Origin: Methanobacterium sp. UBA176
GTDB lineage: Archaea; Methanobacteriota; Methanobacteria; Methanobacteriales; Methanobacteriaceae
Assembly: GCA_002505765.1 (NCBI GenBank)
Contig: DAVZ01000019.1
Coordinates: forward strand, 1-32,000
DNA length: 32,000 nt
Direction: 5' to 3'
Shown: positions 3,547-24,866 of the stretch, piece after piece
Layout: each line of letters begins with the position of its first letter
Position numbering within the stretch: position 1 is the first letter of the stretch
Position numbers and translations under genes: made by a program
The notes under the pieces: generated by a model
The model's input: the letters and a program-made list of their open reading frames with translations, nothing else
The model's database searches: none
What the model was told of the DNA's origin: nothing

Positions 3547-3639
3547 TTTAATCAGTGGGAATTTTAATTTAACACCTGGTACAAATATTTTTAAGCTTTT
3601 ACTTAAATAAATAGAATAATAATTTAAAGATTGATTCTC

Positions 3640-4371
3640 ATGCTCATTGTAAAACAGCACGATGGTCCATCAAGGCTTGGTAAATTTGACCAATTAAACA
3701 CTCCTGCAATTTTAAAGTACACAGACCAGTTAGAGATTGTAAAAGACGAACCTATGCCTTACGACGTTCCTAAAGAGCTAGCCCAATGGTCAGTTAATAG
3801 AACAATTGAATTAGCCAATAAAAGCAAAGGCGAGGGAATTGCAGTTATTCAGGGTTCTAAATACATTGATTTAAGAATTAAGTGTGCTGAAAAATTGGAT
3901 CTTATAGGGTATACCACTTTGATGATTGCAAATTCTGAGAAACTGCTTAAAAACCCAAGGAATCTTGTGGATATAGTTGTAAATATAAGAAAAACTGTAA
4001 ATCCCAACGTGGCATTATATTTTCCTTTCATAGATGCTTCATTTATCCCTTTACTTGCTTATATGGGAATAGATTTAGTTGGAGACGTTTCGGCGGGTTA
4101 TTGTACTTATTTGAATAGATTAGTAACTCCTACAGCCATTTATGACCTTGAAGAGTATAAAATCTATGAATTTGGCTTTGATGAGCTTGAATCCTATAAT
4201 AAGCGCACTTTAGATTTTGTTACAAGAGAAATAAGGGAGAATATAAAGAACATGACCTTAAGAAACCTTGTTGAAGAAAGATGCTGCACCTCCCCGGAGG
4301 CTATGTCAGCTCTAAGAATACTCGATAAAAAGTATTCTGACTTTTTAAAAGAGTATACACCTTTATACTAA
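3640..4371 (+). CDS. Short TGT-fold-like protein (tRNA-guanine transglycosylase / archaeosine-synthase N-terminal type); function uncertain
   Basis: The N-terminus HDGPSRLGKF..LNTPAIL resembles the start of archaeal TGT/ArcS proteins, but the ORF is only ~243 aa. The start is moved from the TTG at 3631 to the ATG at 3640. Confidence 0.5.
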   Translation: MLIVKQHDGPSRLGKFDQLNTPAILKYTDQLEIVKDEPMPYDVPKELAQWSVNRTIELANKSKGEGIAVIQGSKYIDLRIKCAEKLDLIGYTTLMIANSEKLLKNPRNLVDIVVNIRKTVNPNVALYFPFIDASFIPLLAYMGIDLVGDVSAGYCTYLNRLVTPTAIYDLEEYKIYEFGFDELESYNKRTLDFVTREIRENIKNMTLRNLVEERCCTSPEAMSALRILDKKYSDFLKEYTPLY

Positions 4372-4373: not shown

Positions 4374-4516
4374 TATAGTCATGTGCATAGATAATTAAAC
4401 TTATGATTATCAGATTATACCGGATAAAGTGGATTAAATCCAATTCCTGGAGCTTTCAATTTTCTTTGAATTTATGATGCGCTTAAAGGATTTTTTTTTT
4501 ACAGGCCTTCATTGAA
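4374..4516 (+). repeat. Copy A of a ~143-bp intergenic element; candidate small RNA gene or MITE-like repeat
   Basis: It is about 93% identical to the reverse complement of 29727-29870. It contains a T10 run (4491-4500) and two predicted hairpins (4420-4450 and 4455-4470). Confidence 0.85.
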
Positions 4517-4799
4517 CTAACAGCCTAAAAACTTTTGCAATTAACTATAATTACCCAATATAGAACATTGTATATGACATACAGGGTACACAGAATTATA
4601 AAAAAACAATTATTGTAATTTTAAAGGTTTAAAAAGTCAATTAATTAATATAAATTATATTTTATCAAGTTAAAATAATTAAAAAAGTATTATTTCATTT
4701 CTATTTATTTATTATAAAAAATAATCTATAATTCATAAAATTTTAATTGAAAAAAAATATATATCGGACATTTAATAAATATGAAAAGAGTTTAGAAAT

Positions 4800-4878
4800 G
4801 GGAGGGCATTAGATCCAAAAATCAGAGGCGGTTTGATTTTTTTGCGGAAAATTAAGAGGAGTCTAATTTTACCCTCCC
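4800..4878. other. Long imperfect stem-loop; possible structured RNA or regulatory element upstream of nob1
   Basis: GGGAGGG (4800-4806) pairs with CCCTCCC (4872-4878). attaga (4808-4813) pairs with tctaat (4862-4867), and tcc pairs with gga. An inner hairpin pairs aaaaatca (4817-4824) with tgattttt (4834-4841). Confidence 0.3.
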
Positions 4879-5005
4879 TTAAATACTTTTCTGTAATTCA
4901 TAACATAAAAACTTTCTGTATAGTATGAACATTTTAGTTCAACATTAAATATTTGCTCAAAGTTCTTTTCAACAAATTATTATTTTATAAAATATGATAC
5001 ATATT

Positions 5006-5515
5006 ATGGAAAAAAAAGTTTATGTTCTGGATTCTTCTGCAATAATAGGTGGCTATAATTTCAAGAATTTAGATAACTATACTATAAATGAAGTTATTTC
5101 TGAAATCAAAGACTTTAAATCAGAATTATTATTGCAATCTTCCATTGAAGATGGTCAGATTAAATTAGAACAACCAGATAGGGAAGATCTGGAAAAAGTG
5201 AATCTTGTTACCAGATCTTCTGGAGATATATTAAGGCTTTCTGAAGTCGATAAAAAGGTTATTGCACTTGCATTAAAATTTAAAAGGAAAGGAATAAATC
5301 CTGTAGTGATAACAGATGACTACACCATGCAAAACACGCTTAAAATCGTTGGAATTCCTTATAAAAGTATTTTGACCTCTGGAATTGAAGGAATTCTAAA
5401 CTGGATTAAAGTTTGCAAGGGATGCAAAAAAAGATATCCTCCTGAATATAAATTTGAAGAATGTGAGATATGTGGTTCCAGAATTTTCAAAAAGAAGATA
5501 AAAAAAACAATTTAA
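5006..5515 (+). CDS. nob1: Archaeal Nob1-type endonuclease (PIN domain plus C-terminal zinc ribbon)
   Basis: It has a PIN-like N-terminus (VYVLDSSAIIGG ... VITDDYTMQN). The C-terminal zinc ribbon is CKGC-x14-CEIC. The ~170-aa size is typical of archaeal Nob1. Confidence 0.75.
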   Translation: MEKKVYVLDSSAIIGGYNFKNLDNYTINEVISEIKDFKSELLLQSSIEDGQIKLEQPDREDLEKVNLVTRSSGDILRLSEVDKKVIALALKFKRKGINPVVITDDYTMQNTLKIVGIPYKSILTSGIEGILNWIKVCKGCKKRYPPEYKFEECEICGSRIFKKKIKKTI

Positions 5516-5594
5516 TCAAATTTAGAATCATTAATTTTGAAAATTTTCAATTAAATAGATAATTTTAATAGATATTTAGGTACAACAGTGAATA

Positions 5595-6692
5595 ATGAAA
5601 ATTGGAATTGTTGTGCATGGGCCATTTGTGGTTGATTCTGGTCATGCAGAGGAAATTTTGAATCTATTGAGTAATTATGGAGAAGTAAAAGCCCGTTTAG
5701 GGGGTACTATGGGCAGAACTGCTGTTCATGATGCAGGGCTTGAGGATGAAATTGATATTCGCATGAAGATGCTTCCCAGTCAGTCTGTAGATAAATTTAT
5801 AGAAGAAAAATATGATGTTGTTATATTGATAAACTATGGAAAGTCATCTATCACAGGTCATGCATTCGGATTTAAAGTATTTAGCCATTGTCAGGGTAAT
5901 CCTCCCCTAATACAGATTGAAAGACCCGGAGAAAGAGATGGTAGCATAATACCATGGATTAGCTCGTTGAACGAACTTGCAGAAAGGATATCTAAGGATA
6001 TGAATCTTAAAATTGTTTATCCGCAGGAAATAAAAGAAAAAATGGCTTCTAATAAAGTAAGTGAAATCGAAAGGACCATAGCAGGAGTATCTCCTGGTGA
6101 AAATATATTTGTTAATGGAATTGTCGTAGGAAAATCTATATCCTGTCATGTAACTTTAATTGCAGAGAATGGCTTTATAACTGAAATAAATGGAGCAAAT
6201 ATAAAAGAACATGGAGTGGAAAAACTTGGTAAAATAGACCTACAAACAGCAATAGTAAAAACAGGACTGCTTAGAAGATCCGAAGTCTCACCAAGAATAC
6301 TTAAATCAAATAATAACCACGATAAACTTAAAGTAGCATTTCTAAACCATGCAGCAGAGGATATATATCAATTAAAAAATGCAGACTACGTTGTAACCAT
6401 TGGCGACGATACCACACTTGTTGCAGGTGATATACTCTATAGATTTGACGTTCCTGTAATTGGAATCACCGATGGAGACATTGATAAAGTTGTGGAAAAG
6501 GGATTTAAAACAAAACGATCCTTAATAATTGAGCTTGAAAAGGACTTAGATGACGTAATTGGTGAAAAAATTCATTCTGAACTTTTCAATGGTGAAGAAA
6601 TCATTGAAATAGAAAATATCGAAAATTTTAAAAAGGAAATATTACAGATTATAAACGATATAACCACTTGCTATAAAATAAAAGAAAATTGA
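5595..6692 (+). CDS. Conserved archaeal protein of unknown function, first gene of the marker operon (possibly a DUF2117-type family; not verified)
   Basis: The 365-aa ORF has a GTGA RBS-like motif upstream. It ends 9 nt before the next gene. I recognise no catalytic motif. Confidence 0.7.
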
Positions 6693-6701
6693 GGTGTACA
6701 G

Positions 6702-7700
6702 GTGGATTTAAACCATCTTATTACTTCCCTAAGGAATTTTGAAGGGATTACACGAAAAAATCCAATTAAGAAAATAACCAATATACTGGAAGATACCTAT
6801 AACATCGCTGGAAAAACTGTTTTGAGTTTTGGAGACGATGCATCTGCGCTGGATATTGGAAATGACAAATTGATTCTTCTTGCAGCCGACGGAATGTGGG
6901 GGAAGCTTATGGAAGCTGATCCAAAATGGGCTGGATACTGTTCTGTTTTAGTTAACGTAAACGACATTGCAGCAATGGGCGGCGAGCCAATTGGTATGAC
7001 CAACGTTCTTTCAACCTCTGATGATAAAATACGCGATGAAATACTATTAGGAATTAAAGAAGGAGTTGAAAAATTCGGTGTCCCTATGGTGGGAGGCCAT
7101 TTTCATCCAGATACACCATATAATGCACTGGATGTTTCTATTACTGGGATAGTTGACAAAGATGATATTATAACAAGCTGTAATGCAGAAGCTGGCCATA
7201 AAGTTATAGTTGCAATGGATATCCATGGCCAGATTCATCCAAAATTTAATCTCAACTGGGATACAACAACAATGAAAAGTGCTGCCCTCGTACAGTCTCA
7301 AATTAAGATGATGAATAAAATAGCAAGGGAACATCTTGTAAGTTCTGGAAGGGACATAAGCAATCCAGGAACTCTCGGAACCCTTGGAATGCTTCTTGAA
7401 GCTTCTGATGTAGGAGCATCTGTTGAAATTGAAAAGATTCCCAGAAATGAGAGTATTGAATGGGAGCAATGGCTTAAATTATATCCTGGAGCAGGATTTG
7501 TCTTAACTGCTAAAAAAGAAAACGTGGATAGATGTATAAAATTATTTGAAGAAGTAAATATTAAATCAGCAGTTGTTGGAGAAATTATTAAAGATAAAAA
7601 GCTTTATATAACTTTTAAAAATGAAACAGGAATATTATTCGACTTTGATGACGACGAAATAATGGGCATTAAAGAAGAAAGATCATCTGAGGAGATTTAA
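6702..7700 (+). CDS. AIR-synthase-related (PurM/ThiL/HypE fold) protein; methanogenesis marker protein 2 type
   Basis: The motifs [18 protein letters not shown] and [10 protein letters not shown] are characteristic of the PurM-like ATP-dependent superfamily. It uses a GTG start with GAGGTG upstream. Its stop overlaps the next start by 1 nt. Confidence 0.8.
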
Positions 7701-9235
7701 TGAATGTTAGGGTCAATGGAGAAAAAATAGGCCTTCCTGAAGGTTCAACACTTAGAGATGCCATAGAAACTGCAGAAGCACCCTATATCGAAGGTTGTAT
7801 CCTATCAGTTATAAAGGGCAAAGAAGAAGTTGAAAAATATGTGAACAAATATAAAATAAAAACCAGTAAAGGAAGCATAATAATAGAATTACTGGAAGAT
7901 GGACCTTCAAATCTGGTAGATACATGGAAAAAACGTTATAAAGAGTTTGAAAGTTTAAGAATAAGATGGACCACCTCTAACGAAGTCTCTTTAGGCCCCA
8001 TTAAAACAGATTTAGTTCCTACAAGAGAAGAATATCAATATTTTCCCTGGGAGGTTATAATGAGTCTTTCAGGATTTACTGCAGAATCAACACATATTAT
8101 TTTAAGCAAATCAAAACATGACGGAATTTATGGAGTTCCTGAAGGAAATAGAGGTGTTTTTGCCCGTGTAATAGGGGGTAAAAGAACTGTATTCACCCTT
8201 GCTGACGATGATTTTATAAATGAAATAAAACCCGTGATTGAGCGAAGCAGCACCATTAAAAGCGCTACAACAATTGATTTAAATACCCCAGTTGAAGATG
8301 GAAATGAAATATTTACATACGTCCTTGTTAAGCCAGAATTCAGATCTCCCAGTTCTGTTGAACACTTCTTTGCACTAGCTGAAGAGGGTAAAATAAGAGT
8401 AGATTATGAATCTAATTCATTTATAGGTTTTTACAAGTTGCACGGCCTTGAAAAAAATGCAGAACTAATCGATAAAAGAAGTAGGGGAACAATAACGCTT
8501 CGAAATAAAGGTAAAGGAGTAGGGAAGGTTTATATTTACAGAGAAGATAGAGTATCAGCACCATCACATACTATCGTTGGCCATGTTGAGAAAGGAATGC
8601 AAATACTTGATATAGCAGATACTGGAGATTTAATCACATTCAAATCTAACCCTGAAAGAATAATGACCCTCTCTATGACCCAGAAAGAAGCAGAAGAATA
8701 TTTAACTTCTAAAGGAATAGAACAGATACGCGAAGGCCTTGCTGACGATAGTGCAATAGTAGTGGGTCAAGATCCAGAGTTTACAATGGATATTATACAT
8801 GGCAAAAGAGCATATACTCTGGGAATCGATGAAAATAAAATAATTGAAGTTGAAATTGATGAAAAAGCCCTTAGATCCTCATGGTATTTCAAAAAACTTA
8901 CAGGACTCCTTGATTCTCCGGTAGGATCCCTACAAATACATTTTGCCTTTCCAGGAATGAAGGTAATGATGTTTAAAGGTAGTTCAAAAGATGCTAAAGG
9001 ACTTATTCCTGAGAACATTCCACAAAAATGCGTGAAAACTGGTGAAATAGGAATAACAAACATGTCCCGTAGACAAATTGGAGTAGTGGGAGTAAGATTT
9101 GAAGACAATGATGAATACGGCCCAACTGGAGAACCATTTGGAGGTACCAATATAGTTGGAAGGGTGGTTAAAGGGCTTGAAAATCTTGAAAAGTTAAAAG
9201 AGGGTGAAGTAGTCTATGTCAAAAGAAAAATCTGA
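7700..9235 (+). CDS. UPF0288 / methanogenesis marker protein 3 type (511 aa)
   Basis: The length and the position after the PurM-like gene match the conserved methanogen cluster as I recall it. It is translationally coupled on both sides. The family assignment is from memory and has not been searched. Confidence 0.7.
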
Positions 9236-9647
9236 TGAAGTAACTCGAATGATAATACTCGGACCTTCAGCACAGATAAATTCTTCTGAACTTGTACAGA
9301 AAATCCATATGCTTGAACTTCCCCTTACAATTAAATCAACATGCTATGGAGCAATAATTCATGGCAAAGAAAATGTAGTAAAGGATGCTGTGGAAAAAAT
9401 AAGAAAACTTGATCCCTACAACATCTTTACAAAGGATAGGGGATTCCCTCCAGGAGATCCAAGGCGCTGCAGAGCTAAAAGAGGAGCTGCAAGGGAAGGA
9501 TTTCATCAGCTTGAAAAAGAATTCGAGCTCCTTGATTGTGTAAGGGAGGCACTGGAAAAGCCCAGGGAAGTTCACATTGAAAAACCAATTAAGATTGATC
9601 CTGATTCCTTAAAAAAGATTATTACAGAATGTGAGAATGAAGATTAA
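9216..9647 (+). CDS. Small conserved methanogen protein, probably methanogenesis marker protein 6 type
   Basis: The 143-aa ORF overlaps the upstream gene by 20 nt. It carries the motif [21 protein letters not shown]. The family call is tentative. Confidence 0.6.
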
Positions 9648-9694
9648 ATTAATTTATCAGATTAAAATAACCTAAATTGTCGAGGTATGATAAA

Positions 9695-10069
9695 ATGCAG
9701 ATAACTCCTTTTTCTAAAGGTGAAGAAATAGCACCAATTGCGCTTGCTATTCATGAACTTGTAAACGAACTTCCAACAACAATGCGTTCTAAAAATTCAA
9801 ACGGGGTTAGAATTGAAGATGGAGAGATAATAGATTATAATTATACAGGCCCCGTGTTAGAAAAAGTATTAAACGAAGGTGAAATTATCCATACAATCCC
9901 CGAAACTGGCCCTTATAGCGGCATTCCTGTTATTGTTGTTCCAATTAAAGAAAATGAAGAAGTTATTTGCGTAATAGGGATTGTTGATATAACAAAAGGA
10001 ATATTTAGTGATCTCAAAGAAATAACAAGAAGACCTCAACAAAGAAATCACAGGGGGGAGTTTTATTGA
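9695..10069 (+). CDS. Small conserved archaeal protein of unknown function inside the operon
   Basis: The ATG at 9695 has GAGGT 9 nt upstream; the track's TTG at 9677 is less likely. Its end overlaps the next gene's start by 4 nt. Confidence 0.6.
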
Positions 10070-10512
10070 AAATAGCCATATTTCCTCCAAATTCATTAAT
10101 CTTAGCGGATTTAATTGAAAGAAAAGGACATGAAGCTCTTGCTTTACAAAAAGAAATAAGAAAAAAAGTTATAGATCCAGAGATTGATTCACCGCCATTT
10201 AACATTACAGAAGAAGAACCTATAAAAGGCCTTAAATATGCTGCTATTGAAGTACCATCAGGTGTAAGAGGTAGAATGGCCATATTCGGACCATTAATCG
10301 ATGAAGCCGACGCTGCAATTATAATGGAAGAAGCACCCTATGGATTTGGATGTGTAGGATGTGCAAGGACAAACGAACTATCCATGTACTATTTAAGGAA
10401 GAAAAAAATTCCGATTCTAGAATTGCAGTACCCTACATCAAGAGAAGAAGCAATAGAAATGGTAAACACGATTAACACATTTTTAGATGGACTGGAGGAA
10501 AAAAATGGTTAA
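10066..10512 (+). CDS. Small conserved methanogen protein, probably methanogenesis marker protein 5 type
   Basis: It uses a TTG start preceded by GGGGGAG. The N-terminus [19 protein letters not shown] and the motif [12 protein letters not shown] (CxxC) are present. The family call is from memory. Confidence 0.6.
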
Positions 10513-11734
10513 AATAGCCCAGATATCATGCGGAACAGAGTACAGCGGTATTCAAAAGGAAATTGAAAAAGCTGCTGCAACATTTGGCGCTGAAATTGTT
10601 ATTCCAGAAGCTGATCTGGATTATATTGACGAAGCTTATCATAAATTTGGTTTTAATGTTGCAAGTTCAAGTATAAGACTGATGATAGCCAGAGCCATGT
10701 CCATAGTTGAAGGAAAGGCAGATGCTGACGCTGTATTTATAGGAACATGCTTTAGGTGTGCCGAAGGAGCACTGGTTAGGAACGAGGTAAGACGGTTCAT
10801 ACAACAAAACACAAATTTACCTGTGGTAACCTATTCTTTCACAGAAAGAACTAAAGCAGATGAGCTATTTATAAGAATGGAGGCACTATCTACAATAGTA
10901 GATAGAAAAAGTCTACTTGCACGTGAGAAACAGGAAGGTCTTACCATTGGAATAGACTCGGGTTCAACCACCACAAAAGTCGTTCTAATGGAAAATAATA
11001 GGATAATAGGTACAGGCTGGCTCCCAACCACTGATGTGATCAAATCTGCTGAAGACGGATTGAAAAGTGCATTTGAAGGCACCGGATACAAATTGGATGA
11101 TATTGATGGAATGGGTGTGACCGGTTACGGACGTTTAACTATAGGAAAGCATTACAACGCAGATTTAATCCAGGAAGAACTCAGTGTAAACTCAAAAGGA
11201 GCCGTTTACCTTGCAGACCGTCAAAAAGGTGAAGCTACAGTTCTCGATATTGGGGGGATGGATAACAAAGTAATAACCGTTAACGACGGAATACCTGATA
11301 ATTTCACCATGGGCGGAATTTGTGCTGGAGCATCTGGAAGATTTTTAGAAATAACTGCAAGAAGGCTGGGTGTAGATATAAGTGAACTTGGAGGGCTTGC
11401 TTTAAAAGGAAACTATAAAAATGCACTCCTAAACAGTTACTGTATTGTATTTGGTATTCAGGACCTTGTTACATCCCTTGCTGCTGGAGGTACGAAGGAA
11501 GATGTGGCTTCTGCTGCATGTTATTCAGTAGCCGAGCAGGTTTACGAACAGCAGCTTCAAGAAATTGACGTTAGAGAGCCAATAATACAGGTAGGGGGGA
11601 CATCGCTGATTGAAGGGCTTGTCGAGGCTGTTAGCTCAATTCTCGGAGGAATTGAAGTAATCGTACCTGATAATTCACAACATATAGGTGCTGTTGGCGG
11701 TGCGCTTTTAGTATCCGGTTTGGGTAAAAAATAG
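10505..11734 (+). CDS. ASKHA (BadF/BadG/BcrA/BcrD-type) ATPase; methanogenesis marker protein 15 type
   Basis: The phosphate-binding motifs [14 protein letters not shown] and [12 protein letters not shown] are present, and the N-terminal domain has CFRC. The ATG at 10505 has GGAGG upstream and overlaps the upstream stop by 8 nt. Confidence 0.8.
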
Positions 11735-11743
11735 GAGAGTAAA

Positions 11744-12292
11744 ATGTTAGTTGAATGCTACGATAAAAGTGGTGCTGAAGTCTATGAAATGATAATAAAG
11801 CAGATAATGCAGGATGTTCAGATCGGCCGTGCTATTAGTGATATGAAAGTGTTTGTAGACCCAAGAGAGCCTGTATTCATTATTGCAGTTAAGTATGAAA
11901 AAGCAGCATCTCCAATTACAATTGACGATTTTACAGAATACGAATATAAAAAAGAAGAAAATAAAACAAGAATAAGAGTTAAAGATGAGACTTATTTACC
12001 TGATTTACTTCAAAAACTCTGGGAAACAGAAGGTAGAGAAAAAATAGAACAGCCAAGCAGATTTGAAATTGTGATAAATGATCCACAATTAGATCTAAAG
12101 GGAATGATTATTCACGACCCTTCAGAAGACCTAAAAAAGAAGATTTATGATGCCATTTTCAGAATAATTCCCGAAGGATTTAAGGTTGTTGATCACAAGT
12201 CAAAGGACAGTATAATTTCCATGTTATGTTCTGACGAGATAATTAAAGATGAATGGATTAAAAAAAGAGATAAGATGATTAAGGAATTATAA
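11744..12292 (+). CDS. 182-aa conserved methanogen protein, probably methanogenesis marker protein 17 type
   Basis: GGAGAG sits 4 nt upstream of the ATG. The size and the position after the ASKHA ATPase fit the conserved cluster. The family call is tentative. Confidence 0.6.
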   Translation: MLVECYDKSGAEVYEMIIKQIMQDVQIGRAISDMKVFVDPREPVFIIAVKYEKAASPITIDDFTEYEYKKEENKTRIRVKDETYLPDLLQKLWETEGREKIEQPSRFEIVINDPQLDLKGMIIHDPSEDLKKKIYDAIFRIIPEGFKVVDHKSKDSIISMLCSDEIIKDEWIKKRDKMIKEL

Positions 12293-12311
12293 GGATGAAA
12301 GAAGTTTGAGG

Positions 12312-13172
12312 ATGAATAAAATGAAAGAAAGCAAATTTGCCCATATGACAAAGGTGCATCCATGTTTCAACGAGAAAATGCACGATAAAGTTGGAAGAAT
12401 CCACGTTCCTATCGCCCCTAAATGCAATATTCAGTGTAATTTCTGTACAAGAGATATAAATAAATGTGAAATGAGACCAGGAGTATCATCCAGAGTTATG
12501 AATGTAGACGATGCTATAGAACATGTAAGGAAAGTTACAGCAGAAATGCCCATATCTGTCGTCGGTGTTGCCGGTCCGGGAGACGCTCTCTTTAATGAAG
12601 AGACATTTGAGTTTTTTAAAAGAGTTGATGAGGAATTCCCTGATCTGATAAAATGTATGAGTACTAACGGGCTTCTTTTACCTGATAAGGCAGATTTACT
12701 GGCTGAATTAAAGATAAACACCATAACAGTAACTGTAAATGCAATCGATCCAGAGATCGGAAAAGAAATCTATGCTGGAGTTTTCTATGATGGAAAGATT
12801 TACAGAGGCAAAGAAGGATTTGAAATACTCTCCAAAAATCAGCTTGAAGGGATAGAAAAGATATCAGAGAAGGGAATCGTTGTTAAAGTTAACGCAGTTC
12901 TAATTCCAGGATTAAATGATAATCACATTGTGAATATAGCTAGAGAGGTTAAAAAAAGAGGCGCTTCTTTGATGAACGTCATTCCATTAATACCCCTTAA
13001 CAAGTTTAAAGACTTAGAGAAACCGAGCTGTGCAGAAATTAGCAAAGTGAGAGACGAAGTCGAGGAAATAATTCCGGTCTTTAGAGCATGCAGTCAGTGC
13101 AGAGCTGATGCATATGGAGTTCCTGGTAAAAAGGACAAGCACCTTGATATGACTCCAATGAGTCATTATTAA
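12312..13172 (+). CDS. nifB: NifB-type radical SAM protein (stand-alone SAM domain, no NifX-like extension)
   Basis: HVPIAPKCNIQCNFCTRDINKCE closely matches the NifB signature around the CxxxCxxC radical SAM motif. The ~287-aa size is like the minimal methanogen NifB proteins. The start could be 12306, 12312 or 12321. Confidence 0.7.
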   Translation: MNKMKESKFAHMTKVHPCFNEKMHDKVGRIHVPIAPKCNIQCNFCTRDINKCEMRPGVSSRVMNVDDAIEHVRKVTAEMPISVVGVAGPGDALFNEETFEFFKRVDEEFPDLIKCMSTNGLLLPDKADLLAELKINTITVTVNAIDPEIGKEIYAGVFYDGKIYRGKEGFEILSKNQLEGIEKISEKGIVVKVNAVLIPGLNDNHIVNIAREVKKRGASLMNVIPLIPLNKFKDLEKPSCAEISKVRDEVEEIIPVFRACSQCRADAYGVPGKKDKHLDMTPMSHY

Positions 13173-13214
13173 ACCTTTTTTATTTTAAATCATATATTAA
13201 TCAAGGTAATTAAC

Positions 13215-14144
13215 ATGAAAACAATGTACTGGAAGGATAATCACCTTTTTTTATTGGATCAAACTGAACTACCTGATGAAATTACTTATTTTGAATGTAA
13301 AACCTACAAAGATGTTATTCATGCCATAAAAACCATGAAAGTGCGGGGCGCTCCAGCAATTGGAGTTGCAGCAGCCTTTGGAATGGCACTTGCTGAACTA
13401 GCTGGAGAAGACCTGCAAAAGGCAGGAGATGAAATTAAAGCTGCAAGGCCTACAGCAGTGAATCTCTTCTGGGCAGTTGATAGAGTATTTAATTCAGATA
13501 ATGTACTTGATGAGGCTTTAAAAATGTATGATGAAGATATAGAAACTAATAAAGCCATTGGAAAATACGGTTCAACTGTAATTGATAATGGAGACACCAT
13601 ATTAACACATTGTAATGCAGGTGCGCTGGCCTGTGTAGATTATGGAACGGCTTTAGGTGTAATAAGGGCTGCGTTCCATGAAGGCAAAAAAATAAAGGTC
13701 ATATGCGATGAAACACGACCATTTTGTCAGGGTGCAAGGCTCAGTGTCTTTGAGATGCAGCAGGAAAACATTCCAGTTAAGTTAATTGTAGATAGCGCAG
13801 CAGGGCGCATGATGCAAGCTGGAAAAGTCAGTAAAGTTATTGTAGGGGCAGATAGGGTTGCTAAAGGTGGAGTTGCAAATAAGATAGGTACACTAATGGT
13901 TGCACTTGCTGCAAAAAGGTTCAACATCCCATTTTATGTTGCAGCGCCAAAAAGTACATTTGACTTTGAAAATTCGATTTATGATACTGAAATAGAAGAA
14001 AGAGAACCTGATGAAGTGCTGTATTTTGGAGAATGTCGTGTTGCACCAGAAGGAACAGAAGTAGAGAATCCTTCATTTGATATTGTGCCTGGTGATCTGA
14101 TTACAGGGATAATCACTGAAGAAGGAATTTTAGAGCCGTTTTAA
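13215..14144 (+). CDS. MtnA / aIF-2B-related sugar-phosphate isomerase (methylthioribose-1-phosphate isomerase family)
   Basis: The N-terminus LFLLDQTELP...AIKTMKVRGAPAIGVAAAFG is diagnostic of the MtnA-type branch of the eIF-2B alpha/beta/delta family. Confidence 0.8.
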   Translation: MKTMYWKDNHLFLLDQTELPDEITYFECKTYKDVIHAIKTMKVRGAPAIGVAAAFGMALAELAGEDLQKAGDEIKAARPTAVNLFWAVDRVFNSDNVLDEALKMYDEDIETNKAIGKYGSTVIDNGDTILTHCNAGALACVDYGTALGVIRAAFHEGKKIKVICDETRPFCQGARLSVFEMQQENIPVKLIVDSAAGRMMQAGKVSKVIVGADRVAKGGVANKIGTLMVALAAKRFNIPFYVAAPKSTFDFENSIYDTEIEEREPDEVLYFGECRVAPEGTEVENPSFDIVPGDLITGIITEEGILEPF

Positions 14145-14246
14145 ATTGTACGTAAAATTATGGGTTGAGTAACATTTGAAAAACTCATTATTATTGTCTA
14201 ATAATTTAACTTACTCACCATCTGCAAAATCTGCTACGCCCAATAT

Positions 14247-15629
14247 CTATTCATATCTACTACATCCTTTTTTTATTCCAGAAAGCATGTCAGACTTCAC
14301 GCTATTGTATGCAGATATAGCTCCAGGACCTACATGCAATATTGTATCTCCTGGTTTTGAATATTTAATGGAAAGCTCTCCTGCAGCTTCCATGTCTTCA
14401 ACTGCAATTTTTAAGGCGTTTGAATTACAAGCTCCATCCAAAACTTCTTTGGCAGCATCCATGTTCAGGTTTCCAATGGTTTCATTGTATCCTGTAGCAA
14501 TTATAACTTTGGCATATCTACCAAGCAGGTTACCTATCCTATATTTGTCCCGGGGAGTGCTACTATCAGGATTGTCGATCAAAACCACTAAATTGTGCCC
14601 AGAAAAAGATTTTAAGGTAGGAAGAAGACCTTCAGGTATGTAGGCTGCATCAAAATACACTTCCCTTTCAGAATATTTTCCTAAATATTCCATATGGCCA
14701 GGGATTCCATTGAACTTACTCAATGCATTTTTTATGCTTTCTTCATCCAGACCATAACATATTGAGGCTGCGGATGCAGCTATGGAATTTTCAACATAGT
14801 ATCCTAACATTTTAATAGGAGTTTGAAATTTTCCAGCTCTGTTACCTACATCGTATTTGATCATGAACTTTCCATCTACCAACTCACCTGAAACATTACA
14901 TTCATTTCCTTTTGAACCATACCAGACCACATCGTTCCTGTTTACCAAATCCCTGCATTTTATATTGGCAATAAAAATATCAGGCATATTAACCATAAGC
15001 AGTTTACGGGCTATGTATTTATCCATGGATCCTTCAAATTCTGTAAGATGTTCTGGATAGATATTTGTGAGGATGCCTACCTTCAGCTTCACCTGGGACA
15101 TGAGCCTCAGGGTACCATGAGGAATTTCAAGAACTGCAATATCATTTTTCTTATGATAATTATGAATTATTCCATCAACTATGATCTCGCTAAGTAGATT
15201 TCCATGTTGGGATGAACATGTCCACACCCTATATCCTGCAGACTCAAATATGTGGGATATTATGTGGGTGGTACTTGTTTTCCCAAGTGTTCCTGTAATT
15301 CCAATTATATCTATGTCAATTTCTCTATCTATTATTTTTGCGATATCCTCATTTTTAATTAACTTCATCTTTTTTCGTCTGAACCTGGCATCTGTCGGTA
15401 TCGTGGGAGACACATATGCTGCGTCAAATCTTTCAAGCTCATCAGGTGCATCTGATCCTAAATGAAGCTCTATCCCTTCTTTTTCCATTTTCAGGAGAAT
15501 TTCTTGAATATCTCTTGGAAATTTTCTTAAAGGTTTTCTATCTGTGATAACAACATCGTTGCCAGCATGGTTTAGAATTCTTGCAGCAGGACGTCCAGCG
15601 TTACCTGCGCCAATTACTACACATCTCAT
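14247..15629 (-). CDS. Mur ligase family protein with a MurD-like Rossmann N-terminus; candidate coenzyme F430 synthetase (CfbE-like) or pseudomurein peptide ligase
   Basis: It has the Mur ligase P-loop GITGTLGKTSTT and the N-terminal motif VIGAGNAGRPAARIL. The ORF is 460 aa. The substrate cannot be read from the sequence. Confidence 0.75.
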   Translation of the reverse strand: MRCVVIGAGNAGRPAARILNHAGNDVVITDRKPLRKFPRDIQEILLKMEKEGIELHLGSDAPDELERFDAAYVSPTIPTDARFRRKKMKLIKNEDIAKIIDREIDIDIIGITGTLGKTSTTHIISHIFESAGYRVWTCSSQHGNLLSEIIVDGIIHNYHKKNDIAVLEIPHGTLRLMSQVKLKVGILTNIYPEHLTEFEGSMDKYIARKLLMVNMPDIFIANIKCRDLVNRNDVVWYGSKGNECNVSGELVDGKFMIKYDVGNRAGKFQTPIKMLGYYVENSIAASAASICYGLDEESIKNALSKFNGIPGHMEYLGKYSEREVYFDAAYIPEGLLPTLKSFSGHNLVVLIDNPDSSTPRDKYRIGNLLGRYAKVIIATGYNETIGNLNMDAAKEVLDGACNSNALKIAVEDMEAAGELSIKYSKPGDTILHVGPGAISAYNSVKSDMLSGIKKGCSRYE

Positions 15630-16195
15630 AACAATCCCAATACTATCAATAATTCAATGATATAACTTTTTTGCTCACCTGCATGCGAACCATCCAAGTC
15701 AGTGTAATATTAAAATAGTACAGTTTAAAATACACTGAAAACATATTGTTTTTTAGAAGATTTAATACTTTCTAAGATGGTGATTTCCATAACTAGAAAA
15801 TTAGTTAGAGTCTTAGAATTCGTTGTGATTTTCCAAGAATCTTTATCCTCTGTTTCAACTCCTCATATTGTTATACTCCCTCTGTAAAAGTGTTTTTTTA
15901 AATTTTTTTTGCATTTTGAGCATTAATAACTGTAAAATTTATAGTACGGAATTTTCTACTTCAATCTATATAAATCTTACGGTTATAAAAGCCTGAAACT
16001 GTTTATAAGAAGATTACAAAATGCGCTTTTATAAACGGAGCATGATGACATATTCATAAATCAAAATGAAATTATAAAAATTCTCAAAAAATTTATCACA
16101 CTAAGTCTTTATCATTTGCTAAATATGGATAGAAAAATTTCTATGTAAGTGTAAAAAAATTAGTTACAAACTGGAATTATTATTTTTTTTACCCT

Positions 16196-16291
16196 ATTTT
16201 ATGCGTGAAATGCAGTTATTCCCATTAAAAATCAGACTGATACTGAAGGTAATATTATTAAATTTTATGCGTGAATTGCAGTTATTCCCAT
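16196..16291. repeat. Two 30-bp direct repeats separated by 36 bp
   Basis: attttatgcgtgaaAtgcagttattcccat (16196-16225) and attttatgcgtgaaTtgcagttattcccat (16262-16291) differ at 1 position. Confidence 0.9.
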
Positions 16292-16741
16292 CGGAAGGTG
16301 AAGGCAGCAATAACTAAACCAAGGCAGAGGAGTGCCAAGTCACATTACTGCATAATCCTTTCATATCTTTAGAAGTTAATTGCCTTTTTTTTTAGATTCA
16401 TAGAATAGGCCCATTCCAGACAGGTAAAGAAGAATTTATTGTAATTATTGGATAAAGAATACCGGTTTCATGATTTAAATTTTCATAACAAACCAAAAGA
16501 AAGCTATTAAAAGAATTTCAGTTGTATTATCACTGTTAAGTGGAACCGGCTCTTTCCTATCCAAATAATCATTAAATAAATAGAATAGTGCCTGAATCTA
16601 CCAAATCTTTAATTGGATCATAAAATCATCAATATTTCTTGTAGGGAAATTATTTAAGTTCAGATTATAACCAAACTTTACAAGAGGAAACATGAAATTA
16701 TTTCCCAAACGTTAATAAATCACCAGTATACGAAATAGGCT

Positions 16742-17770
16742 TCAAACACGATCATCTTTCTCAAAATTTGAAAAAATATTTTTATTAATATTTTCCATAT
16801 CCGGGAACGGAAAAACATGGCCAACACCATCTAACCACAAACCTTTTGCATTTGGTATTATTTCTGCGAGTTTCCTTCCATGTTCTACAGGAATAATTGA
16901 ATCATCCATGCCGTGAATTACCAGGGTCGGTGCATTGAGTGTCTTTAATTTTTCATAGCGTGAGCCTGAAATGCTAACAGCAGTTTGATGCTGAAATATC
17001 GCCTTAATATTAATGCCCCTTCGTTTTCGAAGATTATAAAGAACTATCTCTGCTATTTCTTTGATGTCTAACTCTTCAGACCCCACAAATGCAATTGTTT
17101 TAGCAATGCGTTCTTTAATCAGATTTTTCTCGCCACCAATTAAACGGTACTTCAGTAATGGAATACCCTTCAAAATAGAATTAAGGAAATAACGTGACGA
17201 TAAGCCGGGAAGATCAGGGTCTCCAACATATCCTGATGTCATCATTAACGTAAGCGACCCAATTCGGTCCGGATAATTAATAGCAATTTCCTGTGCTATC
17301 ATTCCACCCATAGAAAGACCTACGATGTGGACCTTCTGAATTTTAAGCGTATCTAATACTGCAACAGCATCCCCTGCCATATCTACCAACGAATAAGAGT
17401 TCTTTCTGTTCCAATCTTCAACCCAGTCAGACATTCCCGTCCCTCTTTGATCGTAGCGAATTACCTGATATCCTGAATCAACAAATGCACGAACAAATTT
17501 AGGAGGCCAATCCAGAGCATTGCCCGCCAGTCCCATAATAAGCAGAACAGTTTCTTTCGACGAACCTTCAGGAGAAATACATTCATACCAGATATTCAAG
17601 CCATCTGATGATGCAAAACCAGTCTTGCCACCAATAACTTCAGGTAATTTACTATTTAAGACATTTTCGATTATTTCATTAGTTTCAGGTGGTAGTTTTG
17701 GTCCAGATATGTAGATATATATTAAAATAATTACCAATAGAATTAAAAAGATTGTAATAGGTAAAATCAT
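16742..17770 (-). CDS. Membrane-anchored alpha/beta hydrolase
   Basis: An N-terminal TM helix (ILPITIFLILLVIILIYIYI) is followed by the nucleophile elbow GLSMGG. C-terminal HG..D...P and GH motifs are typical of the fold. Confidence 0.8.
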   Translation of the reverse strand: MILPITIFLILLVIILIYIYISGPKLPPETNEIIENVLNSKLPEVIGGKTGFASSDGLNIWYECISPEGSSKETVLLIMGLAGNALDWPPKFVRAFVDSGYQVIRYDQRGTGMSDWVEDWNRKNSYSLVDMAGDAVAVLDTLKIQKVHIVGLSMGGMIAQEIAINYPDRIGSLTLMMTSGYVGDPDLPGLSSRYFLNSILKGIPLLKYRLIGGEKNLIKERIAKTIAFVGSEELDIKEIAEIVLYNLRKRRGINIKAIFQHQTAVSISGSRYEKLKTLNAPTLVIHGMDDSIIPVEHGRKLAEIIPNAKGLWLDGVGHVFPFPDMENINKNIFSNFEKDDRV

Positions 17771-17839
17771 ATTATTTCATCTCCTAAAAAAGAGATTAGT
17801 AATTTATTGTTATGTTTTATAATATCTGCCTTTTTTAGT

Positions 17840-18616
17840 CTATTCAAAAAATCCCTTTGGCGTTTCTCCTTCGAGGAAAGGTTCGATGAAAGCGATTAAA
17901 AGATCGGTCTGAGTAATGACAGCCGTATGCGATGTTGCCGGCATAACTGCCAAGCGCGAAGCCGATAACGGATTACCCATATCACCCATAATACCACCAC
18001 CAAGCAACCGAAACATAGCTATCGTATGTTCGAGCGTCGCACCGTCTGCATCACCAGCAATGATCAGTACAGGGGTTTTCAATTTTTTAACATCTTCTTC
18101 CAATGCCATCGGCTCCTTCTCGAGAGCTATCAGCTTCTCCACAAGTGCAGGAAACCCATCGGGATTAGGGGCAAGCTTACGATAGTCTAGAGCGAATGGC
18201 ATATTGAGAAACATTTCTACAGTCATTTGCGGAATGAAGTTCTTGAACTCCGGCTGCCAACCTTCAATATCATAAGCGCCTGAGCAAGATATAAGTTTAT
18301 TTACCTTCTCCGGATGACGGATGGCAAGTTGTAGTCCAGTTATAGCGCCCATGGAATAACCGAATACATCAGCTTTCTTAAGACCTATCGCGTCCATAAA
18401 AGCAGCTACATCATCTGCCAGGTTCGGATAGGTGATGGGGCGGTCAATGTCAGTGGTCCGACCATGGCCCTGGAATTCGAGTGCATAGACCTTGTGGGTC
18501 CTACTGAGTTTGGGGATTATTTCTCCCATTGATATTATGTTCATATAAGCACCGTGCAATACGATTAGTGGATCGCCCTTGCCGGAGACTTCATAATACA
18601 TTTTCATTCCGTTCAC
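17840..18616 (-). CDS. Alpha/beta hydrolase
   Basis: It has PLIVLHG, the nucleophile elbow GYSMGA and a C-terminal SH. It uses a GTG start with AAGGT upstream. The gene is G+C-rich relative to its flanks. Confidence 0.8.
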   Translation of the reverse strand: MNGMKMYYEVSGKGDPLIVLHGAYMNIISMGEIIPKLSRTHKVYALEFQGHGRTTDIDRPITYPNLADDVAAFMDAIGLKKADVFGYSMGAITGLQLAIRHPEKVNKLISCSGAYDIEGWQPEFKNFIPQMTVEMFLNMPFALDYRKLAPNPDGFPALVEKLIALEKEPMALEEDVKKLKTPVLIIAGDADGATLEHTIAMFRLLGGGIMGDMGNPLSASRLAVMPATSHTAVITQTDLLIAFIEPFLEGETPKGFFE

Positions 18617-18749
18617 GGATGCGTAATTACCTTTGCTTTTTATTAAAATTCCCCCTTATTTTCTCTTTCAATTTAATTTTCTTCCATATCAAAGTCTAAA
18701 AGCCACAATACCAATTTTATTGCTTATATTCGCCTATCTTGATAATTTA

Positions 18750-19826
18750 TTAAATCAAGACTGCAGAAATTTCTACAAACTCACTATATCGATTAACCTC
18801 TGATTCTACTGCTTCTTGCTCATCTTTGCTGAATTTACGAAAAGGATTTAGCCTGATTTCAACTCTATTTCTCTTCAAAGATTTATTCCAGGTGCCTGCC
18901 ACTTTACCATCTAAAATAATAACTGCATTTAAAGCATTACCCATTGAAATCATTCTTTCAATATCTCGCGCTTCACTGATATCTCCCCTGTCTTTATAAG
19001 CAATTGTGTATTCATCATAAATTGATAATAATAATGCAGATGGCGACTTTGGTGTTTTTACCTTTATATAGTCAAAAAACCAATATGTCTTGCCATCATG
19101 AGTTGATTGATTTAATTTTGATTTAATTAAGTTGAGGGCGTCTCTTGCATCTCTAATGGTGAGTCCTGACCACCATGAAAAGTCCTTCAGTTGAGCTGGG
19201 CCGTGACTTTTAAAATAGTTGATTATAAGTTTAGTAAGAGCTTGTTCCCAGCTTAACTTTTTTGCTTTTTTCACTCTTTCTTCCAGAAGTGCATAGGTAA
19301 ACTGTTTTCCACGCCTTGGTCCGCTGCAAATCAATCCATCTAATTCTGCCTGCATGATAATGTGAGCCAGACGTTGAATGTCTGTATTGATACCTATTTC
19401 TTCTAATACGGTTTTAAGCTCTTGTCGAGTAAGATATGTATGATCTCGTAACGCTTTGACGATTGCAGCATTACTTTTAGCAAACAACATATCATCAAGT
19501 TCAAGTTTTCGATTATAAGACTTAAGAACAGTTTTTACTCGGGGTGCAGTTAACTCAAGCATCCAGCGGATATTCTCTGGGGTGATAAAATGCCATGTAG
19601 GGCGCATTACATGAGTGCGCAAGATTTTACCTTCATTGAAAGCGTTTTCAATTTTTTCATCAGTTGAATTTTTAATACGAAGCCCAAGCGCCCATTTAGC
19701 AGCGGCAAAGTCCTGTGCCTGAACTGCACCTAAATGTGAAACCGCATCCGATGCAGTTTTAAAGGGAGAATTGACTAAACCGCTGTTATAAAGACGTAAT
19801 TTTGTAATTTCTGCAGCATTCATCAT
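18750..19826 (-). CDS. Winged-helix DNA-binding protein of the AlkZ/YcaQ (HTH_42) family; putative DNA glycosylase
   Basis: The 358-aa size matches the family. The N-terminal region is HLGAVQAQDFAAAKWAL, containing a Q-x-Q/D motif like the catalytic motif I recall for AlkZ/YcaQ. The assignment is by recollection. Confidence 0.6.
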   Translation of the reverse strand: MMNAAEITKLRLYNSGLVNSPFKTASDAVSHLGAVQAQDFAAAKWALGLRIKNSTDEKIENAFNEGKILRTHVMRPTWHFITPENIRWMLELTAPRVKTVLKSYNRKLELDDMLFAKSNAAIVKALRDHTYLTRQELKTVLEEIGINTDIQRLAHIIMQAELDGLICSGPRRGKQFTYALLEERVKKAKKLSWEQALTKLIINYFKSHGPAQLKDFSWWSGLTIRDARDALNLIKSKLNQSTHDGKTYWFFDYIKVKTPKSPSALLLSIYDEYTIAYKDRGDISEARDIERMISMGNALNAVIILDGKVAGTWNKSLKRNRVEIRLNPFRKFSKDEQEAVESEVNRYSEFVEISAVLI

Positions 19827-19858
19827 CTAACCTTTATCATGCTTAGTATCCATGCATA

Positions 19859-20458
19859 TCAAATCTGTCTAAAAAGCATTGAAAAATCCACCAGCAGCCC
19901 ATCGTCATCCACCACAATGTCAAAAATAAAATCGGCAGCTCTACATCTTGATAACGATAGGTTCGCTCATCTATCTTACTGTAAATTTGCTGAAGTCGCC
20001 GTAGGGAAACTGTCAAAATTTTAAATTTTGACGCAGCAAAAATCTACGATTTTTGCCAGACTTATTCTCGTCAAAATAGATCATGTCGACTTTCTGTGGT
20101 TCTCCATCAAAGCGCAGTTGTTTGATTGGCAGCGTATTTGTGATGAAATGGAGATATCTACCATCTCTACGCCATCAAACTCTGACAAGAGCTGGCCCTT
20201 GCCATCATACCACTGATAGTCCTTATGCACGAGATTAATCTCTCTTTCACCCAATAATGACTTAATAGATACTTCCTTAATTTGCCAATCCATAGTCAAT
20301 GCCAGATAATACTCTACAGCAAACGGAATATCCTGGTCGGTTTTACCCACCGCCAGTCCATGACCATAGACACCATCATCTACCATGTGCCGATGAATCA
20401 CCATGCTTGGCCAGGACAATGCCTGCCAGACAATCGTTCGCGTTTTATTCGCTGGCAT
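19859..20458 (-). pseudogene. Frameshifted glycolipid-binding-domain (DUF1089-like) gene
   Basis: Frame 1 runs from 20458 to a stop at 20081. The family-like segment FITNTLPIKQLRF...VDMIYFDE continues in a second frame from about 20150. QQIYSKIDERTYRYQ lies in a third frame. FIFDIVVDDDGLLVDFSMLFRQI ends at the stop at 19859-19861. The total of about 200 codons matches the family length. Confidence 0.7.
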
Positions 20459-20597
20459 ATTCTATGCCTCATTTAAAGATGTCTGAAAAACTTCGGCAAT
20501 GTTCCTTTTGATTATCTTGTTCATCTGCTTTCTAAAAATTATTTTCCTCATTTGTTTTCCCACTTCCATTCTTGGTATCCGATTTTGTAATGCTCCT

Positions 20598-21758
20598 TTA
20601 CGTTTCCCGGAATTCGCGGAAGAAATCACGTAGATCCTTGGCCAGCAACTCTGGAACTTCCATGGCCGGGAAATGGCCGCCCTGTCTGAATTCACTCCAG
20701 TGCGGCAATTGATTCTCTGGATCTTGTAAGGCACGCGCGGTGCTTTTAGCTCCAAAGACAGCCATACCCACAGGGGCAAACGATGGCCGGCTCCAGTCTC
20801 GCTGCAAGTGTAGGTTATTGTAGAGAAAGCCGGCAGCCGAAGCGCCACTCATAGTAAACCAGTACAGGCTGATGATAGTGAGCATTTGGTTCAGGTCTAC
20901 AGTTTCTTCAGGTAGCTTATCGCCGTTATCGGTCCACATTTTGAATTTTTCAACAATCCAGGCGAGCTGGCCAACCGGTGAGTCATTCAACAAGTAACCG
21001 ATAGTTAACGGGCGAGTTTTTTGGATTGCAAGATAACCCCCGTCTTCGTCGACTTTTTGGGCGATTTCCTGAATTTCCCTCTTCTCAAGTGTTCGGAATT
21101 TTGGATTCTTAGCAGGGTTGTTGCCCATAAACTTGATATACCAGACGATGGAAGGCATGTCAGCACTGACATGTACGCCAACCAAGTTTTTGTCAATGTG
21201 ATTAATCTCACCGGCAATATCCGAGCCAATATCACCACCATGAACACCCCATCGCTCATAACCCAATTCTTTCATTAGTTGGCTGTAAGCTTTGGCAGTT
21301 CGGATGGCGTGCCAGTGCTCCTTAACAGGGGAAGACAAACCGAAACCAGGGGTAGTTGGTAGGACAACATGGAATGCATCTTCGGCCTTACCACCATGAG
21401 CGACAGGATCTGTTAGAGGGTCGATCATTTTTACAAATTCGATGTTCGAACTCGGCCAACCGTGCAGAAGCATCAGCGGCATGGCATTGGTTTCCTTGGA
21501 TTTGACATGGAAGAAGTGGATAGGTTGGGCACCGATTTCGGCTACAAATTGGTCGTACTTATTGAGCCAGTCTTCCTGCTTTCGCCAATCAAACTTGTGT
21601 TGCCAGTAGTTCGTTAGTTTTTTTAGATAGGCTGGCGGCACACCTCGGTCCCAGCCCAAATCTTTGATTTCATTGGGCCAACGCGTGTTTTCAAGGCGCT
21701 CCCTCAGATCATCAAGCTGCACCTGCGCTATATTGATTTTGTAGGGTTTTATTATCAT
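20598..21758 (-). CDS. Epoxide hydrolase (alpha/beta fold with EH N-terminal domain)
   Basis: The N-terminus is IKPYKINIAQVQLDDLRERLENTRWPNE. It has the HGWP oxyanion motif (LLHGWPSS) and the Asp nucleophile elbow GGDIGS. The ATG at 21758 has GGAGAG 4 nt upstream. Confidence 0.85.
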   Translation of the reverse strand: MIIKPYKINIAQVQLDDLRERLENTRWPNEIKDLGWDRGVPPAYLKKLTNYWQHKFDWRKQEDWLNKYDQFVAEIGAQPIHFFHVKSKETNAMPLMLLHGWPSSNIEFVKMIDPLTDPVAHGGKAEDAFHVVLPTTPGFGLSSPVKEHWHAIRTAKAYSQLMKELGYERWGVHGGDIGSDIAGEINHIDKNLVGVHVSADMPSIVWYIKFMGNNPAKNPKFRTLEKREIQEIAQKVDEDGGYLAIQKTRPLTIGYLLNDSPVGQLAWIVEKFKMWTDNGDKLPEETVDLNQMLTIISLYWFTMSGASAAGFLYNNLHLQRDWSRPSFAPVGMAVFGAKSTARALQDPENQLPHWSEFRQGGHFPAMEVPELLAKDLRDFFREFRET

Positions 21759-21821
21759 AGAACTCTCCATTGTCAAAGCTTCCTAGACAACCTTCCTGTT
21801 TTATCCATTTTATCCAATTCC

Positions 21822-22280
21822 TTATTTTTCCGCAAGCTTTTTTAATTTATTTAGAGCTTTAGGCCAGATTTTCTCGGACATCTCTATCATTTCCTGGTTT
21901 ACAACATCTGAAGACAGATCCACCAGAAGTTCAGTTTTACCATCCACATCCTTAAATGTGTAATTTTCAAGTGATCCGGCCCACTCTTTAGCTTCCTGGC
22001 TTGATGTATCCTCTTCGCCGTTATATACAATACCCACATGTTTAATGGAGACATATTCGTATTTACGGTTCTCCTTTATTCGGCTTACCATTCCAGACAT
22101 TTGTCCTGACTCATCAGGTGCGAGGAACAGTATCTTACTTCCCTCGCTCCAGTCACCGTCGTAGGTTGAACCAGGCATGAAAACGTCTGTCCATTTTTCA
22201 TAGGTATCCTTATCAAGCATGGTCTTCCAGACATTTTCTTTAGGTGCATTTATAACGATTGAAAATTGCATTTTTTCCAT
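21822..22280 (-). CDS. SRPBCC / AHSA1-like small protein (paralog 1)
   Basis: The ATG at 22280 (MEKMQFSIVINAPKENVW) is preceded by AGGAGG. It is very similar to the ORF at 23288-23737. Confidence 0.85.
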   Translation of the reverse strand: MEKMQFSIVINAPKENVWKTMLDKDTYEKWTDVFMPGSTYDGDWSEGSKILFLAPDESGQMSGMVSRIKENRKYEYVSIKHVGIVYNGEEDTSSQEAKEWAGSLENYTFKDVDGKTELLVDLSSDVVNQEMIEMSEKIWPKALNKLKKLAEK

Positions 22281-22296
22281 AAATTTTTCCTCCTTT

Positions 22297-22757: not shown

Positions 22758-22794
22758 AAAATCACACCATTCCATTGAAATATCCTTAAATTGA

Positions 22795-23271: not shown

Positions 23272-23287
23272 TTAAATTCGCTCCTTA

Positions 23288-24377: not shown

Positions 24378-24866
<489 letters not shown>

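Follow-up and report, generated by a model that had tools for sequence, protein, structure and literature searches.

A 176-nt MITE-like element with ends related to an IS630-family insertion sequence, and an inverted 25-kb segment between two of its copies in a Methanobacterium genome

We analysed a 32,000-nt stretch of DNA (the window), which is contig C51 of a draft Methanobacterium genome of 72 contigs and 2.27 Mb (G000). The window carries two copies, A and B, of a ~176-nt element in opposite orientations. The copies are members of a dispersed repeat family with terminal inverted repeats (TIRs) whose ends are related to those of an IS630-family insertion sequence (IS), and the 25.1-kb segment between them is inverted relative to every informative relative. 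We consider the account as a whole highly probable, namely that the element is a non-autonomous MITE of ~176 nt that arose from an IS630-family IS, and that the inversion is bounded by two of its copies. The features on which the argument rests are collected in Table 1.

Table 1. Element copies, neighbouring genes and related elements (window positions, unless a contig of the same genome is named)
Feature	Position	Strand	Remarks
Element, copy A	4374..4549	+	176 nt, TATAG...CTATA including terminal TA dinucleotides; boundaries from multi-copy alignment
Element, copy B	29694..29870	-	177 nt
Left TIR	4374..4387	+	TATAGTCATGTGCA
Right TIR	4536..4549	+	TGCAATTAACTATA in copy A; consensus TGCACTTAACTATA
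T10 run	4491..4500	+	within copy A; T9 in copy B
TGT-like gene, outer left flank	3631..4371	+	Pfam TGT, 36.6 bits
Segment between inverted copies	4550..29693		25.1 kb, inverted vs other Methanobacterium species
PIN_6 (Nob1-like) gene, first inside segment	4994..5515	+	Pfam PIN_6, 53.7 bits
Class I SAM methyltransferase gene, last inside segment	29049..29690	+	Pfam Methyltransf_31, 62.7 bits
moaB/mogA-type gene, outer right flank	29998..30522	+	Pfam MoCF_biosynth, 94.1 bits
Full copies outside the window	C50, C52, C57, C65
Full copy with internal duplication	C35
Truncated copy	start of C25
Internally deleted copy	C27		119 nt
IS630-family element, 1.1 kb	C29:486-1626		ends TATAGTG..GTGCA... / ...CTATA
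IS630-family element, 1.1 kb	C71:27970-29073		ends TATAGTG..GTGCA... / ...CTATA
Third IS630-family element	C3:2-1086		orfA 47% identical; common part only TATAGTT tip
Second MITE family, copies	C3:12991-13125, C64:30804-30950, C64:14228-14344, C25:45553-45686, C11:26719-26858, C46:17865-17999, C15:4084-4212, C48:72442-72578, C12:5065-5202

Boundaries and copies of the element

In a repeat search of the window, positions 4374-4500 matched 29744-29870 in inverted orientation with 94% identity over 127 nt, and the match continued from 4492-4550 to 29693-29751 with 85% identity. When the whole genome was searched with copy A, copy B was returned with E = 4e-66, so the match is not due to chance. 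This confirmed the inverted correspondence between 4374-4516 and 29727-29870 described in an earlier note on this DNA. The length given there, ~143 bp, had to be revised, since the alignment boundaries place ~33 nt more on the 3' side, in a unit of ~176 nt. In the pairwise alignment, the similarity between A and B begins abruptly at TATAG (4374 in A, 29870 in B) and stops at CTATA (4549 and 29694, respectively), and the flanking sequences beyond these points are unrelated. A segmental duplication was rejected because the similarity stops at the TIRs. The two copies are 91% identical, and their longest exact common run is 26 nt. Both are intergenic, as the note had stated: A starts 2 nt past the stop codon of the ORF at 3631-4371, and B sits 3 nt past that of the ORF at 29049-29690. 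The oligo-T runs described in the two copies are likewise present.

Counted across the full genome, the element has at least seven full copies on six contigs, accompanied by truncated and deleted forms and by additional small fragments. All copies in this genome are intergenic and have the same abrupt boundaries, with unrelated flanks beyond the tips, and every one of them opens with TATAGTCATGTGCATA and closes with TTTTGCACTTAACTATA in the multi-copy alignment. The element measures 168-177 nt among the copies, no ORF of 80 aa or longer overlaps any of them, and in four cases a stop codon is no more than 10 nt away. The imperfect 14-nt TIR (TATAGTCATGTGCA on the left versus TATAGTTAAGTGCA, the reverse-complemented right end) matches at 12 of 14 positions in the family consensus and at 11 of 14 within copy A itself. 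TA is found at both tips in nearly all copies; it could belong to the TIR instead of being a duplication.

The copies fall into subfamilies. Copy A and the copies on C50 and C52 form the first (97-98% identity; A is 97% identical to either of the other two), and copy B is 91-93% identical to it. The copies on C57 and C65, 95% identical to each other, belong to a second subfamily, which is ~85% identical to the first. Orthologous sites in the relatives are without the element, these genomes being 70-80% identical and too diverged for a comparison at the level of single bases. Queries made by joining the flanks of the C52, C57 and C65 copies were run against 23 Methanobacterium species and retrieved orthologous genes; the AT-rich intergenic DNA is too diverged to locate the insertion site with base precision.

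Among the 23 Methanobacterium species representatives, full-length copies were found only in the genome that holds the window. Shorter or altered forms occur elsewhere: an ~85-nt element that keeps both ends in G021, a 46-nt element in Methanobacterium sp. OMB003 that is made up of nothing but the two ends, a 119-nt form resembling the C27 copy in one Methanobacteriaceae MAG, and a 132-nt element in G053 with the same tips and a different interior. Across genomes, the termini are thus conserved and the interior is not. In OMB003, TATAGTCATGTGCAT (15-mer TATAGTCATGNGCAT) occurs 61 times, nearly always 102-118 nt from a contig end and pointing outward. The 18 occurrences that were examined are identical over 117 nt, as are the 40 matches listed in the genome search. 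This is the pattern left by a repeat that was amplified recently and at which the assembly broke, and the left TIR of our element is identical to the end of this high-copy element. The interior of the high-copy element was not found in the OMB003 MAG, and its connection with IS630 is made only via the 117-nt end. The 24-26-nt left end had no match in JGI metagenome contigs or viral contigs, and when GTDB genomes were scanned with a 16-mer, most matches were bacterial and due to chance, the others being in OMB003, MBAC-AD1 and one Methanobacteriaceae MAG.

The same genome contains other small repeats. A second MITE family of ~137 nt has the ends TATAGTGAATAACC...GTTATCCACTATA, which match at 12 of 13 positions, and at least 11 copies with 89-95% identity. 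It has the same TATAGT tip as IS630-type elements. Members of this family also lie beside the first-family copies on C57 and C35; on C57, the flank is a copy that adjoins the ~176-nt element and is not interrupted by it. A third variant, TATAGTCATGAGCATGAG...CAGACTATA, is located at C27:58678-58820. Short repeats of the form AAACACGGAGTGTTTGTGGC...TTCGAATGC, another small repeat family, were seen near MITE or IS copies at C52:~54160-54215, C65:~40125-40185 and C71:~28470-28530, the last of them inside the decayed IS on C71.

Origin of the element

The earlier note had offered two readings of the repeat. According to the first, the copies are a family of small structured RNA genes of ~100 nt, each with its own archaeal TATA promoter and an oligo-T terminator. 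The proposed promoter, a TTTATA stretch just upstream of the element, proved to be partly the tip of the element: in copy A (4372-4377) it overlaps the first four bases of TATA(G), and in several copies the tip together with a preceding T gives TTTATAG. The upstream flanks of the other copies are unrelated (GGGACA, CCAAAT, ACATT and others), and a conserved BRE/TATA promoter at a fixed upstream distance is absent from the aligned copies, in all of which the tip provides the sole common TATA-like bases. The run of nine or ten T is located ~115 nt downstream in the main subfamily, as a terminator would be, but it is reduced to T4-T7 in the subfamily of C57, C65 and C25 and is absent from the 119-nt form. 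It might terminate read-through transcription from the gene at 3631-4371.

Secondary structure gave a similar picture. Both hairpins described in the note are present in the minimum free energy (MFE) fold, but that fold is no better than those of shuffled sequences (z = -1.5 for the plus strand and -1.1 for the minus strand). Hairpin 1 is kept in all copies and shows one compensatory change, CG to UA, in three of them; this pair, however, reflects one event in one lineage, confined to a single subfamily, and is broken in the two 119-nt copies. The RNAalifold consensus of all 10 aligned copies has an energy of -4.3 kcal/mol and retains only hairpin 1, and that of the eight long copies reaches -8.6 (plus strand) and -9.9 kcal/mol (minus strand) over ~180 columns. 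The Rfam search returned no match, either for the whole window at the gathering thresholds or for 4300-5050 at E<=1. With weak consensus folds, a T run that is not kept, no conserved upstream promoter and termini rather than interior conserved across genomes, the sequences offer no positive support for what would be a dedicated RNA gene, and we regard this reading as very unlikely.

The second reading, a MITE-like mobile repeat, agrees with the TIRs, the TA dinucleotides at the tips, the at least seven dispersed copies, the derivatives reduced to their ends, and the homology of these ends to an IS630-family IS. The genome contains two 1.1-kb elements of this kind, on C29 and C71. The product of orfA of the C29 element (159 aa) matches the NCBIfam model of the IS630-family transposase, NF033545, with 107.2 bits (cut-off 100) and Pfam HTH_32 with 68 bits. 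In a relative in G055, a C-terminal fragment matches DDE_3 with 51.9 bits and NF033545 with 60 bits. Both the C29 and the C71 copies are decayed by stops and frameshifts. All copies of the short element and of the IS read TA-TAG...CTA-TA, and the short element has in common with the IS copies on C29 and C71 and in G055 and G053 the terminal ~17-25 nt and a weaker subterminal similarity. The left end of the short element aligned with the IS 3' end with a score of 58, compared with 32 ± 6 for shuffled sequences, and 16 nt of it are identical to the OMB003 element. The right ~80 nt, reverse-complemented, aligned with the 5' end of the C29 IS from position 486 up to and including the start codon of the transposase (score 50 versus 25 ± 4). 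The alignments of the two ends are thus 4-6 standard deviations above the shuffles. In the second of them, the A-rich beginning of the transposase ORF (ATGGCTGGAAAAAAG), once reverse-complemented, lines up with the T10 run, so that the supposed oligo-T terminator is most simply explained as a relic of the parent IS.

The two end alignments suggest that the element would be an internal-deletion derivative, in which the left ~100 nt correspond to the IS 3' end and the right ~80 nt to its 5' end together with the beginning of the transposase gene. Transposases of the IS630/Tc1-mariner group bind both TIRs, excise the element and paste it into a TA, which is duplicated. The TATAG...CTATA at the copies fits this mechanism, by which the TA at the tips may be a duplication and the MITE would be mobilised in trans by an IS630-family IS of Methanobacterium. 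An intact cognate transposase was found neither in G000 nor in OMB003, and the family is therefore probably immobile in G000 at present. An IS630-like element on OMB003 contig C100 was considered as the partner and rejected, being a different element. Taken together, the data strongly support the mobile-repeat reading over the small-RNA reading, and we are highly confident that the element is an IS630-family-derived MITE.

The third IS630-family element, on C3, has a single frameshift past the orfA stop, at an A8 run. A similar organisation was observed more widely: in the IS630-family elements of Methanobacteriaceae, orfA is ~160-180 aa long and ends just after an A8 run (TTAAAAAAAAC[A/T]TAG), and the DDE part lies in another frame. 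We saw this at C29:535-1014 and C3:53-535 of G000 and in more than 100 matches in 60 Methanobacteriaceae genomes. The arrangement resembles two ORFs connected by programmed frameshifting more than it does the outcome of decay.

The inverted 25.1-kb segment

In the window, the TGT-like and PIN genes are separated only by copy A and 444 nt, whereas they are not neighbours in the relatives. Twelve species have both of them on a single contig, encoded on opposite strands at a distance of 14-24 kb; G021 differs in its arrangement, with 42 kb between the two. By tblastx synteny, positions 1-4371 and 29998-32000 are collinear with G020, G005, G019, G001 and G009, and ~4990-29690 is reversed relative to the same five genomes. 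Two gene junctions characterise the other orientation. The TGT-like and SAM methyltransferase genes face each other in G020, G019 and G021, in the first two with almost no spacer, and the PIN and moaB genes diverge from each other in G009, G001, G020, G019, G005 and G021. When the flanks of the window copies are joined across the element, both junctions reappear: the TGT-like and methyltransferase genes become convergent, their stops separated by only a few bases like those of G020, and the PIN-moaB spacer becomes 571 nt, where G009 and G020 have 520-575 nt. Copies A and B thus mark the breakpoints. Since none of the relatives carries MITEs at the ancestral sites, the pre-inversion state, with both copies in place, is one that we infer.

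We consider it very likely that the inversion is genuine and that the two copies delimit it. Independent insertion of two copies at both breakpoints by chance would be very unlikely; with about nine copies in 2.27 Mb, we estimate its probability to be of the order of 1e-7. Two other explanations of the paired repeats were rejected. The copies are not att sites of an integrated element, as they are inverted and the segment holds core syntenic genes, and the segment is not a composite transposon, as it occupies its ancestral place and is only flipped.

An assembly artefact of the inverted repeat, with only the repeat family being real, has to be considered for a 72-contig draft that is apparently metagenome-derived: segments between inverted repeats are a classic ambiguity of short-read assembly, and Logan unitigs end inside copy B. 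A and B, however, differ at ~9% of positions and have no common run longer than 26 nt, so that k-mers of 31 or more resolve them, and we find an artefact extremely unlikely. The same gene order is present in NCBI assembly GCA_022736055.1. A 91-kb JGI contig spans the A-side junction with one mismatch in 8098. This contig also appears among those carrying the methyltransferase, probably as one of two that were collapsed with the NCBI place by shared neighbours, and moaB is among the neighbours of the NCBI place. The Logan unitigs, which come from two runs, break off 29-48 nt into copy B, the behaviour expected at a repeat. A strain variant without the inversion was sought by exact-protein look-ups, and every assembly retrieved was identical to the window.

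As to the cause, the orientation of A and B is inverted, as inversion by recombination requires. Recombination of the two copies would have converted the order TGT-like-> <-methyltransferase ... PIN<- ->moaB into TGT-like-> (A) PIN-> ... methyltransferase-> (B) moaB->, and we regard homologous recombination between them as the probable, though far from secure, cause of the inversion. At 91% identity and with tracts of 26 nt, the copies would be ill suited to homologous recombination if they had not resembled each other more closely at the time of the event; these values argue for an old event followed by divergence, or for inefficient recombination. The distribution of the A/B differences showed no clear sign of chimeric copies resulting from a crossover.

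The same short identity tracts, together with the location of two inverted copies exactly at the breakpoints, would also suit an inversion made by the transposition machinery, through aberrant or alternative transposition using the ends of both copies or through an intramolecular event. IS630/Tc1-mariner elements, however, transpose by cut-and-paste, and an intramolecular replicative event would leave copies that are initially identical, whereas A is closer to the C50 and C52 copies (97%) than to B (91%). We consider this route unlikely, although the palindromic TA leaves no footprint that would separate it from recombination.

A more far-reaching reading is that A and B act as a standing substrate for recombination, with the 25-kb block present in both orientations in natural populations as an invertible switch. 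We see only a slim chance of this. If it were true, flipping would give the TGT-like and methyltransferase genes a different downstream neighbourhood and nob1 and moaB a different upstream one, and the T10 run and the TATA-like tip would act as a portable terminator and promoter, in a MITE-based switch in a methanogen. The 25-kb block carries a methanogenesis-marker operon, the nob1-like gene and a Dam methylase.

Some further observations concern the region itself. About 7.7 kb of the inverted segment (window ~14150-21900) has no counterpart in G020, G019 and G005, and at 28594-29049 the segment lacks 6-8 kb that lies, in these species, between the Dam-methylase region and the gene for the SAM methyltransferase. 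In G021 (C1:108000-162000), both ancestral junctions are kept, and the nob1-moaB block is flipped and moved 40 kb from the TGT-like gene; the ~85-nt derivative of the MITE is located at 137200-137284, between the TGT-like gene and this block. This region seems to be readily rearranged, and in more lineages than one.

Upstream of the PIN_6/nob1-like gene, we also noticed a 79-nt stem-loop (window 4801-4879, plus strand) closed by GGGAGGG/CCCTCCC. It is almost invariant in six Methanobacterium species, where the surrounding intergenic DNA can barely be aligned. Its place in the relatives is the spacer between the divergent nob1 and moaB genes; in three of these species part of it is present a second time. 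The stem-loop is single-copy in G000, has an MFE of -25.8 kcal/mol and is too conserved for covariation analysis; it had no Rfam match at E<=1.

Comparison with known systems and implications

The IS630-family elements (NF033545) of this and related genomes start with TATAG and end with CTATA like our element, as expected for insertion into TA. They differ in being ~1.1 kb long and coding, whereas the MITE is 176 nt long and without coding capacity, and the IS copies that we found are decayed or frameshifted. IS630 transposases have been reported before in Methanobacterium MAGs (PMC8115248) and are widespread in archaea (PMC13343696).

The MITEs of Sulfolobus, Halobacterium and Haloquadratum are likewise small, non-coding, bounded by TIRs, present in multiple copies and intergenic, and they depend on a full-length IS that has the same ends; our element differs from them in its sequence and in its host lineage, Methanobacterium. 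For the Sulfolobus SM1 element, the linked IS is likewise of the IS630 family. The archaeal MITEs given in a 2024 review include those of Sulfolobus, Halobacterium and Haloquadratum; the review names none for Methanobacterium and describes M. thermoautotrophicum as having no apparent MITEs (PMC10969869). Our literature search found no description of a Methanobacterium MITE.

Correia elements of Neisseria and the Stowaway MITEs of plants target TA. Like the present element, they have TA at the tips, are ~100-250 nt long and insert near genes; their sequences are unrelated to it, and we found no evidence here of element-borne promoters, RNase processing or phase variation. Correia elements are reported to carry promoters and have been associated with inversion (PMC10969869). 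Inversions between inverted copies of IS or other repeats likewise leave one repeat at both breakpoints and the genes between them collinear but reversed; compared with typical IS recombination substrates, a 176-nt pair with 91% identity is much shorter and more diverged. The element and the rearrangement are both of an ordinary kind, and nothing about them is mechanistically new.

The analysis removes a false lead, since a new small-RNA family at these loci is without evidence, and adds Methanobacterium to the archaea known to carry MITEs. Knowing the termini of at least three related MITE families, and the IS family that partners them, should aid the annotation of Methanobacteriaceae genomes, and MITE or IS ends explain assembly breaks such as those in the OMB003 MAG. 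The lineage-specific 25-kb inversion, very likely bounded by a pair of 176-nt elements, points to small repeats reshaping the gene order around core methanogen genes.
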